The notes under the pieces are model-generated. The model was given only the letters and a program-made list of their open reading frames with translations, ran no database searches and had not been told where the DNA came from. From an uncultured Candidatus Saccharibacteria bacterium (GTDB taxonomy: Bacteria > Patescibacteriota > Minisyncoccia > Phycocordibacterales > PALSA-1337): a stretch of 59,584 nt of DNA. The DNA lies in the NCBI GenBank assembly GCA_964406895.1, contig CAYOTK010000007.1:1-59584 (forward strand). Direction: 5' to 3'. The position numbers and the translations under genes are program-made. Of the stretch, positions 20,685 through 53,423 are shown one piece after another; the first letter of the stretch is position 1; each line of letters starts with the position of its first letter.

Positions 20685-23600
20685 ATGGACGAAAAGAAAA
20701 CAAACAAATCAACTCATTCTGAAAGAGAAGAGAAAATACTATCTTTTTGGAGAGAAAATCAGATTTTCGAAAAGACTTTGGAGAAAAACAAAAATAAAGG
20801 CAAAAACTTCGTCTTTTTCGAAGGACCACCAACTGCAAATGGCAAGCCAGGAATTCATCATCTAGAGGCGCGTGCTTTCAAGGACGCAATTCCTAGGTAC
20901 AAAACTATGTGTGGTTATCACGTGCGCAGGAAAGGGGGCTGGGATACTCACGGTTTGCCGGTTGAACTTCAGGTCGAGAAAGAACTAGGCTTGAAATCAA
21001 AAAAAGAAATAGAGAAATACGGCATCGCTCCATTCAATGAGAAATGCAAAGAAAGTGTTTGGAAATATGTCCATGAATGGGAAGAATTCACGGATAGGAT
21101 AGGTTATTGGGTAGATCTCAAAGATCCATACATAACATATAAACCGAAATACATAGAATCAGTATGGAATATTATAAAAGAAGTAGATAAGCAGAAACTT
21201 ATATACAAGGATTACAAAGTTGTACCTTGGTGTCCTCGATGTGGAACAGCTCTTTCGTCGCATGAATTGGCTCAAGGCTATGAAGATGTTAAAGATCTTT
21301 CTGTATACGTAAAATTCAAGGTCAAAAATCCTGAGAAGATTGGCTTGAAAGGCGATGTCTATCTTCTTGCGTGGACGACGACTCCGTGGACGTTGCCAGG
21401 GAATGTGGGGCTGGCTGTGGGAGAAAAGATTGAATATGTTGAGATAAGGTTAAAGCGCAAAACTCAAAGCTCAAAAGTGGACTCAGACAATGAAGAGACT
21501 ATTATTTTGGCGAAGGAAAGGTTGGAGAGTTTGACGAGTAAGGGAGAATTTGAAGAGGTTACAGGGAAGAGTTGGAAAGGCAAAGACCTCATCGGCTTGG
21601 AATATGAACCATTGTACCCATTCATTGTTGATAATATTTCAGGTGCAGAAAAAGAAAAATTGCAAAATGCTTATAAGGTTTATCCAGCAGATTTTGTTAC
21701 AACTACCGATGGTACAGGCATAGTTCATACAGCAGTAATGTATGGACAAGATGATTTCGAATTGGGAACAAAAGTCGGCTTACCGAAATATCATTTGGTC
21801 AATGAAGACGGCACTTTCAAGCTAGAAACAGGTTATTTGGCAGGCGCTTTCGTAAAGGATCCTGCAACTGATGTAGCTATAATCAAAGATTTGGCCGGTC
21901 GAGGTTCATTGTTTGCAAAAGAAAAATACGAGCACAGTTATCCTCATTGCTGGAGATGTCACACTTCGCTCATATATTATGCCCGTGACTCATGGTATAT
22001 AGCCATGTCCAAATTGCGTGACAAGCTCGTCGAAGAAAACAAGGATATTCATTGGGAACCTGAACACATCAAAGAAGGCAGATTCGGTGAATGGCTTTCT
22101 CAGATCAAAGATTGGGCAATTTCTCGCGAAAGATATTGGGGTACGCCTTTGCCAATATGGGTTTGTAATAATGAGAAGTGTGGTAAAAGGAAAGTAGTAG
22201 GCTCAAAAGTAGAATTGGAAAAGAAGTCTTCCAATACTTATTTTATCATGCGTCATGGTCAGTCAGAGAATAATGTTAAAGAAATATTAAACTCAGATGT
22301 TAAAAATGTATTTTCTCTAACAGAGAAGGGCCGGAATGATGTGCAGAAAACAGCCGAGATAATAAAAGAAAAATTTGATCTTATTATTTCTTCACCACTA
22401 CAAAGAACAAAAGAAACTGCGGAAATAGTAGCTAAAATAAATGGTTATAAGGCTTCCGATATTATTCTGGACAATAGACTTTTGGAAGTTGGTTTTGGTG
22501 AGTTAGAAGGCGCAAGCGAAGATAGTTATGCGAAGTTATTCTCAAACCGAAAAGATTTCTTCAATTTCGTGTCGAAAGGGGTTGAGTCTCGTCAGACCAT
22601 AAAAAAGCGTTCTTTGGATTTGTTGCAAGAATTAGAATCGAAATATAAGGGCAAAAAGATTTTGCTTGTTGGTCATAGCAGTCCCTTGTGGTTAATGACG
22701 GCTGTCGCAAACGGTCTCGATCTCGATGAAACTTTAACGATTAAGCCAAGAGGCGAAATCTTCATGAAAAACGCAGAACTCAGGCCTCTCGAATACAAAG
22801 TTATTCCAAGGAATGAGTATGGTGAGCTTGATCTTCATCGTCCTTTTATTGATGAGGTTTATTTTGACTGTTCTTGCGGGGGCAAAATGCAAAGAGTCAA
22901 AGAAGTCATGGACGTTTGGTTTGATTCTGGTTCAATGCCTTTTGCTCAGGATCATTATCCTTTCGAAAATAAAGAACTCATTGATAGTGTTTCTTATCCG
23001 GCTGATTATATTTCTGAAGCTATAGATCAGACTCGTGGTTGGTTCTATACTTTGCATGCAATCGGAGTTTTGATGGGCAAGGGCAAAGCATATAGAAATG
23101 TCATATGCCTCGGTCATATTCTCGACGAAAAAGGCAAGAAAATGTCCAAGTCTATCGGCAATGTCGTCAATCCTCAAGAAATGATGGATAAATATTGCGC
23201 AGATGCGCTGCGTTTTTGGATGTATTCTGTCAATCAACCAGGGGATTCCAAGAATTTTGACGAGAAAACTGTGGATGAGGTTGTAAAGAAAGTTTTCAAT
23301 CTCATAACCAATGTTTTGTCATTCTATAAACTTTACGATTCTGGCAAAAATTCCAAAGACGCGCGCCCGAAATCTCAACATGTACTCGATCGTTGGATAA
23401 TGATGAAGACTGATGAGCTTATTATCAAAGTAACGAAAGGTCTTGATAATTATGTTTTCCTCGAGCCAACTCGTTCAATCCGAGAATTCATTGCGGATTT
23501 GTCACAATGGTATTTGCGCAGGTCGCGTGACAGATTCAAGACAGAAGGGGAAGACAAAGAGCAAGTTTTGATAACAATGAAATACGTTCTTACAACGCTA

Positions 23601-24230
23601 GCCAAAGTTATGGCTCCGTTCACGCCTTTCTTGTCTGAATATGTTTATCGAGAAATCAGAGGCAAACTCGAGAGTGTTCATTTGGAAGATTGGCCTGTCG
23701 CCGAAACGGTTGATGCACAATTGTTGCAAGACATGGAAACAGTCAGAATCCTCGCTTCGAAAGGACTTGAATCCAGAATGAAAGCAGGAATAAATGTAAG
23801 ACAGCCACTTATGTCTTTGAAGCTAAAGAATTCCGTCGTTGTTGATTCGGATAAACTCAGCAATGAATTCTTGGAAATTATAAAAGATGAAGTGAATGTA
23901 AAAGAAGTTTTGTTTGATGATACTATAAATGGTGACGTTGAATTGGACACGAATATTACGCCTGAGCTAAAAGAGGAGGGTATGGTCCGAGAAGTTATTC
24001 GTGCAATTCAGGATCTACGCAAAGAAGCGGGGCTGACGGTCAATGATCGTGTGGTATTGATCGTGGGTACAGATGAAGAAGGCAATAATTTTGTTGAAAA
24101 GAATAAGGCAGAAATAATGAGAGTTACTTTGCTCAAAGAAATTAAGTTTGAAAATCAATCTCAAGATATTTCAAATAATAATATTGAAATTGGGGATTTG
24201 AAGATGAAATTGGGATTCAATAAAGAATAA
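20685..24230 (+). CDS. ileS: Isoleucine--tRNA ligase with an embedded histidine-phosphatase (PGM-like) domain
   Basis: PPTANGKPGIHHLEARA (HIGH), WCPRCGTAL, KMSKSIGN and DVWFDSGSMPF. An extra roughly 190 aa with FIMRHGQSENN, SSPLQRTKETAEI and LLVGHSSP lies between the zinc-knuckle region and DLHRPFID. Confidence 0.93.
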   Translation: MDEKKTNKSTHSEREEKILSFWRENQIFEKTLEKNKNKGKNFVFFEGPPTANGKPGIHHLEARAFKDAIPRYKTMCGYHVRRKGGWDTHGLPVELQVEKELGLKSKKEIEKYGIAPFNEKCKESVWKYVHEWEEFTDRIGYWVDLKDPYITYKPKYIESVWNIIKEVDKQKLIYKDYKVVPWCPRCGTALSSHELAQGYEDVKDLSVYVKFKVKNPEKIGLKGDVYLLAWTTTPWTLPGNVGLAVGEKIEYVEIRLKRKTQSSKVDSDNEETIILAKERLESLTSKGEFEEVTGKSWKGKDLIGLEYEPLYPFIVDNISGAEKEKLQNAYKVYPADFVTTTDGTGIVHTAVMYGQDDFELGTKVGLPKYHLVNEDGTFKLETGYLAGAFVKDPATDVAIIKDLAGRGSLFAKEKYEHSYPHCWRCHTSLIYYARDSWYIAMSKLRDKLVEENKDIHWEPEHIKEGRFGEWLSQIKDWAISRERYWGTPLPIWVCNNEKCGKRKVVGSKVELEKKSSNTYFIMRHGQSENNVKEILNSDVKNVFSLTEKGRNDVQKTAEIIKEKFDLIISSPLQRTKETAEIVAKINGYKASDIILDNRLLEVGFGELEGASEDSYAKLFSNRKDFFNFVSKGVESRQTIKKRSLDLLQELESKYKGKKILLVGHSSPLWLMTAVANGLDLDETLTIKPRGEIFMKNAELRPLEYKVIPRNEYGELDLHRPFIDEVYFDCSCGGKMQRVKEVMDVWFDSGSMPFAQDHYPFENKELIDSVSYPADYISEAIDQTRGWFYTLHAIGVLMGKGKAYRNVICLGHILDEKGKKMSKSIGNVVNPQEMMDKYCADALRFWMYSVNQPGDSKNFDEKTVDEVVKKVFNLITNVLSFYKLYDSGKNSKDARPKSQHVLDRWIMMKTDELIIKVTKGLDNYVFLEPTRSIREFIADLSQWYLRRSRDRFKTEGEDKEQVLITMKYVLTTLAKVMAPFTPFLSEYVYREIRGKLESVHLEDWPVAETVDAQLLQDMETVRILASKGLESRMKAGINVRQPLMSLKLKNSVVVDSDKLSNEFLEIIKDEVNVKEVLFDDTINGDVELDTNITPELKEEGMVREVIRAIQDLRKEAGLTVNDRVVLIVGTDEEGNNFVEKNKAEIMRVTLLKEIKFENQSQDISNNNIEIGDLKMKLGFNKE

Positions 24231-32961: not shown

Positions 32962-33000
32962 AAAAAACAAAACCCCTCAAATTGAGGGGTTTTGTTTTTT
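32962..33000. terminator. Bidirectional rho-independent terminator between rpsR and efp
   Basis: AAAAAACAAAA-CCCCTCA-AAT-TGAGGGG-TTTTGTTTTTT. Confidence 0.8.
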
Positions 33001-40837: not shown

Positions 40838-40896
40838 TTTGTTACTCTTAGTGTGATTGGAACTATCTCCTCCCAACGGGTTACAAAGTTGGAAAC

Positions 40897-40925
40897 AAAA
40901 ACCGCCTTCGGGCGGTTTTTGTTTT
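40897..40925 (+). terminator. Rho-independent terminator
   Basis: AAAAACCGCC-TTCG-GGCGGTTTTTGTTTT. Confidence 0.85.
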
Positions 40926-40932
40926 GGCATAT

Positions 40933-40965
40933 TCGAGGTCGGACCTCCAAGAGGTCCGACCTCGA
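40933..40965. repeat. 14-bp G+C-rich perfect hairpin sharing the TTCGAGGTCGGACC motif with 51868-51881
   Basis: TCGAGGTCGGACCT-CCAAG-AGGTCCGACCTCGA. Confidence 0.6.
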
Positions 40966-41081
40966 TAATTATCCACCGCACAGTATGTCTAACACGTCTT
41001 GCTCATATAAATATTAATTGTTACACTAACGACAAGTAGAATAGTGAAACTGTTTTACTATTATTAGTTAGCAATACAAAT

Positions 41082-41417: not shown

Positions 41418-41435
41418 ATCAATACAAATTGAAAC

Positions 41436-41462
41436 AAAAAAAGGCAGAGATGCCTTTTTTTG
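41436..41462 (+). terminator. Rho-independent terminator
   Basis: AAAAAAAGGCA-GAGA-TGCCTTTTTTT. Confidence 0.8.
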
Positions 41463-41484
41463 TTTATATGCTATATTATGGTCC

Positions 41485-49827: not shown

Positions 49828-49985
49828 GGGCGGCACATAGTGTTTTGTAAAATCTCGAATAATCCACGAAGAATGTACGGTTGAATTTTCCAAATGCCGG
49901 CTGAAGCCGTGGAAGCCGGCTTTTGTGAAAATTCCCGTACATAATGAGTGGAGTTCGAGATTTTACAAAACACTATGTGCCGCCC
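49828..49985. repeat. 158-nt palindromic element with a perfect 32-bp outer stem and an imperfect inner hairpin
   Basis: GGGCGGCACATAGTGTTTTGTAAAATCTCGAA (49828-49859) is the exact reverse complement of 49954-49985. The inner arms pair imperfectly, and the apex is GCCGGCT...AGCCGGC (49896-49920). Confidence 0.85.
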
Positions 49986-50018: not shown

Positions 50019-50046
50019 TTGACAAAAGACTGCAATCGAATATCAT
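50019..50046 (+). promoter_or_regulatory. Sigma-70-like promoter candidate for dnaG-rpoD
   Basis: TTGACA (50019-50024), 16-nt spacer, TATCAT (50041-50046). Confidence 0.3.
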
Positions 50047-51867: not shown

Positions 51868-51904
51868 TTCGAGGTCGGACCTTTTCGAGGTTCGAACTCG
51901 AAAA
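51868..51904. repeat. G+C-rich repeat and hairpin cluster after dnaG
   Basis: TTCGAGGTCGGACC (51868-51881) is identical to 40932-40945. It is followed by the hairpin TTTTCGAG-GTTCGAA-CTCGAAAA (51882-51904). TCGAGGTCGGACC and TCGAGGTTCGAAC form an imperfect tandem repeat. Confidence 0.6.
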
Positions 51905-51960: not shown

Positions 51961-53181
51961 ATGAAGAAAAACAAAACAGCGACCAAAAAGGCCCGCAGTA
52001 ATGTGAAGAATAGTAATAAAAAAACATTGAATAAAGCCACAAAAAAGGCGAGTCGCAAGAGTGTATCTGGTAAATCCATTCAAAAGGGTAAATCAAAAGC
52101 CGATGCCGCCAAGACTTTCGAGCAGAAAGCCAATGCTTTGATAAATAAAGGAAGGGATCGTGGTTTCGTGACATATGATGAGATTCTGAAAGAATTCCCA
52201 CAAATCGAGAACGACATTATGTTCCTCGATGAATTGTATGCAAAATTTGCCTCTGCCAATGTGGATGTGCTCGAAGGAGGAGGTTTGCTCGAGATAGAAG
52301 ATCTCAATCCAAAGAAAGCCGGTCACATGTCAAAAACAGGTTCAGATTCTGCATATGACTCCATTCAGATGTATTTGAAAGAAATTGGTCAATATCCGCT
52401 GATTAGTGCTTCTCAAGAAAAGGACTTGGCGAAGAGGATTCAAATAGGCGACAATGAAGCAAAGAATCTTCTTGCAAAGGCAAACTTACGTTTGGTTGTT
52501 TCAATTGCAAAGAAATACGTTGGTCGTAGTCCGGATCTCACACTTCTTGATCTTATTCAGGAAGGTAACTTGGGTCTTTTCCGCGCCGTCGATAAGTTCG
52601 ACTGGACAAAAGGCTACAAATTCTCGACTTATGCAACTTGGTGGATTCGTCAAGCCATAACACGTGCGTTAGCCGATCAGTCTCGTACGATCCGTGTGCC
52701 AGTACATATGGTTGAAACAATAGCCAAGTATAAACAGGTTGTGCGTCGTCTCATGCAAGATCTTGGACGCGAACCCTTGCCTGATGAGATTGCAACTGAG
52801 ATGGATATGGATGTAGACAAGATTTATCAGATCGAGAAGATCGAGCAAGATGTCATGTCTCTCGAAACTCCTGTCGGTGACGATGATGATGGAAAGTCTA
52901 CACTCCAAGACTTCATTCCTGATGACAAAATACTATCCCCAGACCAAGAGTCCTCACGTCGTATTTTGCGTGATCAGGTCAATATGATTCTCGGAGATCT
53001 TTCAGAAAAAGAGCGCAAAATCCTAGAAATGCGTCACGGTTTGAATGATGGCATTACTCATACTCTTGAAGAGGTGGGCCGAGAATTTGGTGTTACTCGC
53101 GAACGTATTCGACAGATTGAGGCCAAAGCGCATGAGAAGATTAGGCAGCATGACAAAATAAATAGGTTGAAGAATTATTAA
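51961..53181 (+). CDS. rpoD: RNA polymerase sigma factor RpoD (sigma-70)
   Basis: Basic N-terminal tail, [26 protein letters not shown], and region 4 [20 protein letters not shown]. Confidence 0.95.
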
Positions 53182-53213
53182 TTATATTTTTCAGGTTTAT
53201 TATGAATAGTTCC

Positions 53214-53381
53214 GAAATGGGGCGGTACTTTTGTTTTGGAAACCACGATCAATCCCATCGACAAGAGGGGAAGAGTCGATGGGATTGTCTCTTCGCAGCG
53301 CCATCTGAAAAAGGTGACGCAATCGTTTCGTACATGGCGCTTTGCGAAGGGGTTTCCAAAACAAAAGTACCGCCCCATTTC
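53214..53381 (+). ncRNA. Full copy of an unclassified structured element with a perfect 31-bp stem and a 106-nt conserved core
   Basis: 53214-53244 is the exact reverse complement of 53351-53381. The core 53245-53350 folds into a 13-bp helix (53250-62/53275-87) with a 12-nt purine loop, and a 14-bp helix with a UU bulge (53291-304/53333-348). It is the same length as, and highly similar to, the core at 57827-57932. Confidence 0.8.
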
Positions 53382-53423
53382 TGCTGTATTTGTACTTGTA
53401 TTTATGAGCTGTATAATAAATGA

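Follow-up and report, generated by a model that had tools for sequence, protein, structure and literature searches.

The 59,584-nt stretch of DNA analysed here (the window) carries four related hairpin elements behind housekeeping genes. The explanation that we favour, at a rough probability of 0.45, is that they derive from a formerly mobile and now selected RNA module, which would be transcribed within terminator or 3'-end hairpins and perhaps processed via a duplex of about 30 bp. To our knowledge, very few non-coding RNAs are known in Patescibacteria; if the core acts as RNA, it would be an undescribed structured RNA of this group, located at the ends of operons for the transcription and replication machinery. 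The family is narrow, comprising two lineages and five loci, and what is unusual about it is its selection signal and the arm-copying behaviour of its stems.

Copies and genomic setting

The original prediction described two complete copies and one truncated copy of a recurrent structured element, and all three are present. Copy B (53214-53381, on the plus strand like all elements of the window) has perfect arms of 31 bp with 106 nt between them, and copy C (57796-57963) has perfect arms of 32 bp with 104 nt between them. The core of C is the same 106-nt core closed by one additional pair, and the predicted perfect stem of about 31 bp around a 106-nt core is thereby borne out. Covariance-model scores are 158 bits for B and 165.6 bits for C. 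Copy A is cut by the window edge (1-82); what remains is the core's 3' half, at about 1-50, and the 3' arm of its closing stem, at about 52-82, with the end at about 82 inferred. It matches model positions 71-136 with 56.9 bits (E = 1e-11), and its bases 1-62 are 90% identical to the 3' part of copy C over 62 nt.

The predicted number of elements was too low. A repeat scan revealed element D (49828-49985), which has the same architecture, with a 32-bp perfect stem around a rod-like 94-nt core. It has the unit ends TTTTG...CAAAA and the core start CCACGA in common with copies A, B and C, while the rest of its core is different; it is a more distant relative of the family. In strain assembly L215 it is 98.7% identical. 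A further copy, E, lies outside the window next to rplB in convergent orientation. It was seen on contig L218, which is an assembly chimera of the 5' half of copy B and the 3' half of copy E. Copies A, B, C and E are one lineage-specific family with units of about 128-138 nt.

The window is chromosomal DNA of a candidate-phyla-radiation (CPR) bacterium of the Paceibacteria (Taylorbacteria-like), with an RpoD 84-90% identical to the best species representatives. Its genes include rplS, nusG, rplK, thyA, glyA, ileS, recO, recA, ftsK, trmD, rpoB, rpoC, dnaG and rpoD, a UvrD/PD-(D/E)XK helicase gene, a DEAD-box helicase gene and others. The ORFs of at least 120 aa that match Pfam all have housekeeping-type domains, one of them with Bro-N, and about ten ORFs match no family. 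No transposase, reverse transcriptase, integrase or Cas gene was found by Pfam among the ORFs of this size in the 59.6 kb, which agrees with what had been predicted for the neighbourhood of the elements.

All four elements of the window follow the stop codon of a plus-strand gene. Copy B lies between the rpoD stop (53181) and a perfect −10 hexamer, TATAAT (53412-53417, plus strand), 6 nt ahead of the ATG (53424) of the UvrD/PD-(D/E)XK helicase gene; the hexamer is kept in the sister species described below. Element D is found between the rpoC stop (49697) and a promoter-like site of dnaG, TTGACA-16-TATCAT (50019-50046, plus strand), which has 11 of 12 consensus matches and places D at the 3' end of the rpoBC unit. 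Copy A precedes rplS (ATG at 144), ahead of which a conserved TATGAT occurs. As read from the sequence, B, D and A are thus also located upstream of promoter-like hexamers. Copy C is situated between two convergent genes, one for a DEAD-box helicase (stop 57779) and one on the minus strand for a DsbA-like protein (58001-58756). When perfect stems of 9 bp or more were searched for, the element-bearing intergenic regions gave no other hairpin of this kind. All copies point the same way on the G-rich strand, which has positive GC skew and is the presumed leading strand; their direction relative to replication can therefore not be told apart from that relative to transcription.

The sequence just upstream of the elements raises the question whether they are independent genes for trans-acting small RNAs, with their own promoters, a long stem that stabilizes or serves processing, and only incidental proximity to terminators. 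A weak −10-like GGTTTAT(T)ATGA occurs just upstream of B and C and is kept at B in the sister species, the core is conserved as a gene would be, and the apical regions differ between paralogues, as in multi-copy small RNAs. However, the upstream similarity lies in AT-rich sequence that includes stop codons, its spacing to the stem differs between B and C, nothing like it is present at D, and a promoter scan did not rise above shuffle expectation. We give this explanation little credence.

Distribution of the family

As the original prediction had proposed, a covariance model was built from copies A, B and C. In the sequences compared, copies occur in strains of the same species and in one sister species only. 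Carrier contigs were retrieved via close homologues of RpoD and L19. In the strains of the same species (L215-L220), B, C and D occupy the same sites. The sister species (L221/L222 and L230-L239), of which RpoD is 93% and L19 96% identical to the window proteins, has an orthologue of B (B') and a complete orthologue of A (A'). The stem of A' is perfect over 29 bp, and in L230-L239 this copy is flanked by a pseudouridine synthase gene and rplS. L221 and L237 were found in one sample at equal coverage. Judged from these sequences, the family appears confined to the window species and one sister species, with five loci.

Searches with the covariance model and nhmmer covered the syntenic rpoD loci of 80 related species (1.38 Mb) and found no copy, and a covariance-model search of rplB loci of relatives did not detect one either; several syntenic relatives have other long perfect hairpins with unrelated cores. 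A blastn search of plasmid and phage records gave no match. Pattern scans for the core in species-representative genomes gave chance matches or none (the loosest pattern was too loose and one gave six chance matches), the scan of JGI metagenomes gave chance matches only, scans of viral contigs revealed no family copy, and a pattern for the core of D found nothing. The earlier failure to recognize an Rfam family held at both gathering and permissive thresholds. At Rfam 15 gathering thresholds only two tRNAs pass in the window, and permissive scans, run on the region and on B and D by themselves, returned generic long-hairpin matches of the miRNA-precursor type, far below threshold. The families named in this test were the hammerhead, twister, twister-sister, pistol, hatchet and hairpin ribozymes, 6S, Y RNA/YrlA, HEARO and retron msr.

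Contigs from Logan (k = 31) end exactly at the hairpin arms. An assembly artefact was rejected because the same elements occur in independent assemblies from several projects. On the practical side, such palindromes break de Bruijn-graph assemblies at k = 31, and at least one chimeric contig resulted from them. The strains and the sister species showed no presence/absence polymorphism. In assembly L217 a deletion of 27 nt removes the loop and the 3' strand of helix P2.

Perfect inverted repeats of about 31 bp around a short intergenic segment could also mark an inverton, of which the segment is flipped by a recombinase. This was rejected: the core has one and the same orientation in all of the approximately 20 assemblies, which represent many samples, and no recombinase gene is nearby. 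The core also has no conserved promoter, and covariation of internal helices would be irrelevant to inversion. The probability of this explanation is negligible.

Fold and parts of the unit

In B and C the closing stem P1 opens into a three-way junction with two helices. P2 (53250-53287 in B, plus strand) is a 13-bp hairpin with a 12-nt purine loop (53263-53274, AAGAGGGGAAGA). P3 (53292-53348, plus strand) has 6 + 7 bp and a variable tip (53305-53333) flanked by conserved CTGA and GTAC. The predicted 14-bp helix corresponds to P3; its compensated pair is real, but its actual form is 6 + 7 bp with a 2-nt bulge (53341-53342). For the purine loop, variation at the second and third positions had been allowed; it reads AAGAGGGGAAGA in B and AATAGGGGAAGA in C, and within the window only position 3 differs. 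The junction GTAC, described as invariant, reads GCAC in three further assemblies of strains (L215-L217). In all, two loop or junction positions proved more variable than had been described. The apical region varies from paralogue to paralogue and is conserved between orthologues.

The folding energies of B and C are −103 and −100 kcal/mol, and z-scores against shuffled sequences are −12.6 for B, −14.7 for C and −18.4 for element D. The same fold is predicted with DNA parameters (z = −13.3). A comparison of plus- and minus-strand folding energies did not identify the strand.

Comparison of the copies separates a conserved unit from its surroundings. The unit consists of the core closed by a conserved stem of 11-16 bp and has the ends TTTTG...CAAAA; the sequence outside is locus-specific. 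In copy B it spans 53229-53366 on the plus strand, with the inner stem TTTTGTTTTGGAAACC / GGTTTCCAAAACAAAA and the 106-nt core. The outer 5' arm GAAATGGGGCGGTAC (53214-53228, plus strand) pairs with the outer 3' arm GTACCGCCCCATTTC (53367-53381, plus strand), with a T-rich tail behind it. Copies B and E are homologous up to a sharp limit at CAAAA, and the 5' inner-stem sequences of B and A' are identical except for the first base.

Two other roles were considered for this region. A coding peptide was rejected: in copy C, a stop codon interrupts the frame of the ORF that spans B (53202-53423). A guide-like role of the variable arms or the apical region was rejected because these gave only chance-level matches of 10-14 nt elsewhere in the window.

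Selection on resident copies

The divergence between the window and the sister species at site B is high at fourfold degenerate sites, 41% in dnaG, 48% in rpoD and 66% in the helicase gene. Between copies B and B' only 7 of 168 positions have changed. The 106-nt core accounts for four of them, of which three belong to the apical hairpin; the others are one compensated inner-stem pair and one outer-stem mismatch. The flanks of site B differ by 14-16%, and the intergenic region as a whole is 93% identical, compared with 61-72% at the adjacent third-codon positions. At site A, where fourfold sites differ by 25-29%, the core has changed at 3 of the 50 available positions, each of which belongs to the variable apical hairpin; most of the flank cannot be aligned between the two species. 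The conservation of the core next to a diverged stem and diverged flanks at site A means that a recent recombination tract cannot account for it, and this possibility was rejected.

At these fixed loci, purifying selection acts on the core of B and A, unpaired bases of the loop and the junctions included. Conservation of unpaired bases in such a setting speaks for a host-level function over repeat decay, and the original prediction of a functional fold rather than decay is upheld by these orthologues. Selection for spread as a selfish element cannot conserve resident copies that do not transpose.

These data bear directly on the explanation that the family is a purely selfish, MITE-like DNA element, with a single-stranded fold recognized by a transposase or HUH-type enzyme encoded elsewhere, for which the tips of terminator hairpins are a safe haven and which has no host function. 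Such an element would explain why several diverged copies occupy intergenic safe sites with sharp homology limits, why every copy sits exactly at the centre of a palindrome, and why the inner stems of A' and B' are homogenized in one genome. The exclusively Watson-Crick helices suit DNA, the junction tetramers GTAC (B) and TGCA (E) could be target-site duplications, and there are precedents in structured small repeats and in insertions into REP palindromes (bcr1, Correia, IS1397; PMC3184786). However, the unpaired core is nearly unchanged at the same loci in two lineages, as opposed to 25-66% change at neighbouring fourfold sites, and strains do not vary in the presence of copies. The target-site duplication is inconsistent, with none at C and D, the supposed terminal repeats covary, which is not expected of ends that are read by a protein, and the 59.6 kb encodes no transposase. 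A selfish element without host function is a serious contender, though an unlikely one.

Outer stems as probable terminators

The outer stems differ completely between copies, as had been predicted, but the notion of a free-floating variable helix is not supported; in at least B and E they resemble a host terminator. The ordinary terminators of the window are perfect palindromes of 14-18 bp with an A tract and a T tract, and the outer stems of the elements, at 13-20 bp, are close to this size. With the inner unit taken out, B reads GAAAT-GGGGCG-GTAC-CGCCCC-ATTTC and then the T-rich tail, a hairpin built like the ordinary terminators found elsewhere in the window. The outer arms of B can be read as the 5' and 3' halves of the rpoD terminator, and a plain terminator hairpin after rpoD is common in related species. 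For copy E, the outer arm and tail (TGCAGGAC TTTTTGTGTTTTTT) equal the 3' half of a canonical terminator. By sequence, both copies look like intrinsic terminators, for which a G+C-rich stem with a U tract directly behind it was sought after a gene, B with GGGGCGG/CCGCCCC followed by ATTTCTGCTGTATTT, and E with GGAC followed by TTTTTGTGTTTTTT.

A comparison of copy E with a relative may point the same way. The outer arm of copy E, ACAAAAAGTCCTGCA / TGCAGGACTTTTTGT, with its T tract aligns with the plain rplB terminator of L223, AAGAAAAAGTCCC-GAGT-GGGACTTTTTCTT, a comparison that involves a shared motif of 9 nt, an L223 L2 protein only 90% identical, and the chimeric contig L218. Taken across species, this looks like a filled and an empty site, and the elements are absent at the rpoD loci of the 80 species. 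From the sequences, the variable outer stems of at least B and E look like the palindromic terminators of the host gene. Their form, together with the plain terminator of L223, leads us to regard the elements as insertions into palindromic terminators that already existed, placed exactly at their centre. The case is weaker for copies C and A and element D, whose outer stems are perfect palindromes without a U tract (absent after the stem in C and D and largely absent in A), and it rests mainly on B and E.

Covariation and co-evolution of the arms

The 43 modelled pairs are 99.7-100% Watson-Crick in nine distinct sequences. Double changes are present in eight pairs, of which P1 has five, P2 two and P3 one; this was not reached in any of 500 shuffles, and slid controls gave at most two. 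The compensatory changes named in the original prediction are real, with two pairs affected in the 13-bp helix and one pair in the 7-bp helix. Its claim that the helices are kept by compensatory change needs qualification, since the changes in P2 and P3 all fall on a single split, that of B-type versus A/C-type, all are Watson-Crick, and copying of DNA from arm to arm can yield the same pattern.

No G-U pair was found in the modelled helices of the nine distinct sequences. Such an absence is unusual for a structure selected at the RNA level. One-sided changes occur as strain polymorphisms only: a G-U in C (L215/L216), a U-G in D (L215), an A-C in A' (L235) and a G-A in B (L221). Counted on the plus strand these are two G-U, one A-C and one G-A, which does not indicate a strand.

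The stem of A evolves at about the rate of neutral sites. The 3' arm of copy A differs from that of A' at 10 of 30 positions, transversions included, against 25-29% at neutral fourfold sites, and the A' stem is still perfect at 29 of 29 pairs. The inner stem GGAGACC/GGTCTCC is common to A' and B' in one genome, where the window has GTCGACC, GGAAACC and GAAGACC. Template switching in quasi-palindromes is known to homogenize and extend inverted-repeat arms (PMC8794818, PMC13100816). Stem change at a neutral rate with preserved perfection, the shared inner stem of A' and B' and the lack of G-U pairs suggest DNA-level copying between arms and between copies, and from these rates the complementarity of the arms is probably maintained by copying from arm to arm. 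Template switching of this type can produce 'compensatory' changes without selection at the RNA level, which is a caution for RNA discovery based on covariation. The family offers a clean natural case, in which an element is nested exactly in the tips of apparent terminator hairpins, the core is constant while synonymous sites are near saturation, and the stem arms change together at an approximately neutral rate, never to G-U.

The behaviour of the arms could alternatively indicate a palindrome that functions at the level of DNA, as a cruciform or single strand bound by a replication, recombination or nucleoid protein, with template switching keeping the helices and no role for RNA. The exclusively Watson-Crick pairing in nine sequences, the prediction that single-stranded DNA takes the same fold, the neutral change of the A arm with a perfect A' stem, and the documented template switching of inverted-repeat arms (PMC8794818, PMC13100816) are in agreement with this, as is the single orientation on the G-rich strand, from which replication and transcription orientation cannot be separated. 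However, a role in transcription agrees better with the location strictly at transcription-unit 3' ends and with outer stems of terminator form, RNA modules more typically have conserved purine loops and junctions, and there is no match to the known site classes attC, dif, single-strand initiation signal or DnaA-box cluster. We regard a purely DNA-level function as improbable.

Proposed mechanism

In the mechanism that we favour, that of a formerly mobile and now selected RNA module, the perfect palindrome that has the unit at its exact centre, found where a housekeeping transcription unit ends, would be the terminator hairpin of the gene itself. The terminator stem and the stem of the unit would together make up a perfect duplex of some 30 bp. 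Most likely the family spread a single time, as a small non-autonomous element targeting hairpin tips, after which the copies became fixed; they are now retained by purifying selection at the level of the host, which is shown for B and A. Perfect complementarity of the arms is probably kept by DNA-level copying from arm to arm, as the rates suggest.

The upstream mRNA probably includes the element, as the tip of its 3'-end hairpin. The compact fold would hold the two halves of the terminator together, and the unpaired bases conserved in loop and junction would serve as a module for specific binding or tertiary contacts. RNase III could plausibly process the long perfect duplex and thereby free the core as a small stable RNA.

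Several observations count against a selected RNA module: the lack of G-U pairs, the single split within the core, and the L217 deletion, which destroys P2. The narrow range of the family, known from two species-level lineages and five loci only, is counted on the same side.

A bolder version of the favoured mechanism can be formulated, in which the core is a new functional RNA class, either binding a protein or ligand or processing itself, within the terminator hairpins of core-machinery operons, and is released or read out via the stem of about 30 bp; alternatively, the family would reflect an undescribed mechanism of hairpin-tip mobility. We consider this rather unlikely. If a new RNA class were involved, it would constitute a shared 3'-end control element of the rpoBC, dnaG-rpoD, helicase and rplS neighbourhoods in CPR bacteria, which have reduced genomes and are poor in regulators.

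Comparison with known systems

In its behaviour the family is like small structured interspersed repeats (PMC3184786) and like insertions targeted to hairpins. Small structured or MITE-like repeats include bcr1 of the Bacillus cereus group, BOX, RUP and SPRITE of pneumococcus, ERIC and Correia (PMC3184786). They share with the present elements a length of about 100-170 nt, multiple copies, intergenic positions often at gene 3' ends, and very stable stem-loops; compensatory changes, as in bcr1, and a terminator-like form, as in SPRITE, are further shared traits. In contrast to these repeats, the conserved part here is the centre, and copies vary at their ends, opposite to what defines a transposon with terminal inverted repeats. 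There is also no consistent target-site duplication and no similarity to plasmid or phage records, and the copies are old, fixed, under host-level purifying selection and nested exactly in the centre of a palindrome.

Insertion of elements into REP palindromes is known for IS1397/ISKpn1 and the IS110 family (PMC3184786). These also target a hairpin or palindrome, and the insert becomes flanked by inverted repeats of the host. They are, however, insertion sequences with a transposase, whereas the unit described here is non-coding and measures about 128-138 nt, and no enzyme for it was found by Pfam in the window. The REPINs resemble the family in that they are long extragenic hairpins which persist vertically and in which matched changes in both arms keep the pairing. 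In REPINs, which occur with RAYT transposases, the arms are conserved and recognized and the loop is free, whereas the arms here are locus-specific.

Intervening sequences of 23S rRNA replace the tips of helices and are excised by RNase III. Like the present units, they are inserts of about 100-150 nt with a long closing stem in the tip of a pre-existing RNA hairpin, with a sporadic and lineage-specific occurrence. They differ in that the host hairpin here is a putative mRNA terminator and the core is conserved and branched. Quasi-palindrome template-switch mutagenesis accounts for arms that change together by Watson-Crick pairs only and for stem extension (PMC8794818, PMC13100816), but it is a mutational process and not a class of elements, and it leaves the conserved unpaired core unexplained.

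On the sequences at hand, the family appears to fail the defining tests for MITEs (target-site duplication and terminal ends), REPINs, attC sites, retrons, invertons and every Rfam family. With respect to MITEs, the outermost arms are locus-specific, and the conserved sequences are sub-terminal, TTTTG(N3-8)ACC and GGT(N3-8)CAAAA, with covarying middle positions. A target-site duplication of fixed length was not found, C (AGTC/GACT) and D being without a direct repeat. GTAC in B and TGCA in E do flank the unit on both sides, but they are palindromic and inseparable from the palindrome centre. A parent insertion sequence with the same ends was not detected in the window. A REP or REPIN was rejected because the arms differ between copies and the window has no Y1 transposase of the RAYT type according to Pfam. 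Integron attC sites, for which the criteria were a cassette array, ends of the form RYYYAAC...GTTRRRY and extrahelical bases in an imperfect stem, were likewise rejected, since the elements have ends GAAATGG.., GAGGTC.. and GGGCGG.., perfect stems, and rpoC, dnaG and rpoD as flanking genes. A retron ncRNA was rejected, as no reverse transcriptase domain occurs in the window ORFs of at least 120 aa.

The hammerhead ribozyme was rejected on the position of its CUGA, which here is in the internal loop of P3 and not at the junction. The test asked for CUGANGA and GAAA as core strands of the three-way junction; the copies read CUGAAAA, CUGAGAG and CUGAUAU, in which the GA at motif positions 6-7 is missing.

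A further observation concerns the 12-nt loop of P2 and the junction after P2, which stay complementary through two independent changes. This pairing is sterically incompatible with a 13-bp P2; the complementarity may reflect an alternative fold, an intermolecular contact or templated mutation. The matching sequences are GAAGAG/CTCTTC in B, GAATAG/CTATTC in A' and AATAG/CTATT in C.

A possible alternative pairing in the core

The 12-nt purine loop of P2, the 13-bp hairpin in the core of the element, is complementary to the junction that follows the hairpin. In copy B (53214-53381), where P2 spans 53250-53287, the loop lies at 53263-53274 and the junction at 53289-53294, and the same columns are complementary in copy C (57796-57963) and in the complete copy A' of a sister species (L230). 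This complementarity is kept across two independent G-to-T / C-to-A changes, the loop/junction variants being GAAGAG/CTCTTC, GAATAG/CTATTC and AATAG/CTATT. Pairing of the loop with the junction and formation of the 13-bp P2 helix are mutually incompatible.

Related elements and other palindromes

A fourth hairpin element in the window, D (49828-49985), is located between rpoC and dnaG and has a perfect stem of 32 bp that closes a rod-like core of 94 nt with a symmetric GAAGA/AATGA internal loop. It shares the TTTTG...CAAAA ends with copies A, B and C. In the same-species strain L215, D is 98.7% identical to that of the window and carries a U-G wobble polymorphism.

The window also holds two copies (40932-40968 and 51868-51904; 81% identity) of a small REP-like palindrome, TTCGAGGTCGGACC...GGTCCGACCTCGA. 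The distance from dnaG, whose stop precedes one copy, is 10 nt, and the second copy is found about 95 nt past the stop of the upstream gene. Perfect palindromes of 14-18 bp at 32962-33000, 40893-40924 and 41432-41465 are ordinary terminators; their T tracts read TTTTGTTT(T), and the identical motif occurs at the 5' end of the unit in B and in the rplB-adjoining copy E.

Long perfect palindromes seem to be frequent in the Paceibacteria clade to which the window belongs. Related members contain other perfect hairpins, whose arms measure 23-46 bp and whose unrelated centres measure 38-130 nt (L122 4210-4307, L123 18550-18654, L125 8711-8840, L127 8551-8680, L146 13351-13508 and L198 18966-19143), and in L128, L133 and L135 long low-complexity inverted repeats follow rpoD.

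Surroundings of copies B and C

A perfect TATAAT lies upstream of the UvrD/PD-(D/E)XK helicase gene (TATAAT and start, 53412-53426), an arrangement also kept in the sister species. Because only 6 nt separate the end of this box from the ATG, the sequence suggests that the helicase mRNA is leaderless. Downstream of C (57964-58000) there are three consecutive AAGACC motifs, if the final bases of the C stem are counted, and the 7-mer GGTCTTC/GAAGACC is present at the outer and inner ends of both C arms.

Strain variation and assembly

Between L215 (7324-8544) and the window (51961-53181), 27% of the 4-fold sites of rpoD differ, against 2-6% in rpoC, dnaG and the helicase gene, which looks like a recombination tract restricted to rpoD. 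One strain assembly (L217 3333-3441) has a 27-nt deletion in B that takes out the P2 loop and 3' strand, and L218 (3333-3468) is a chimeric contig in which the 5' half of B is joined to the 3' half of the rplB-adjoining copy. The De Bruijn-graph Logan contigs L213, L219 and L220 (k = 31) stop exactly at the 30-31-nt hairpin arms. The elements therefore break up assemblies, and contig collections probably under-represent them.

Elsewhere in the window, an isoleucyl-tRNA synthetase-like protein of 1181 aa (20685-24230) carries a histidine-phosphatase (His_Phos_1) domain inserted at residues 520-686.
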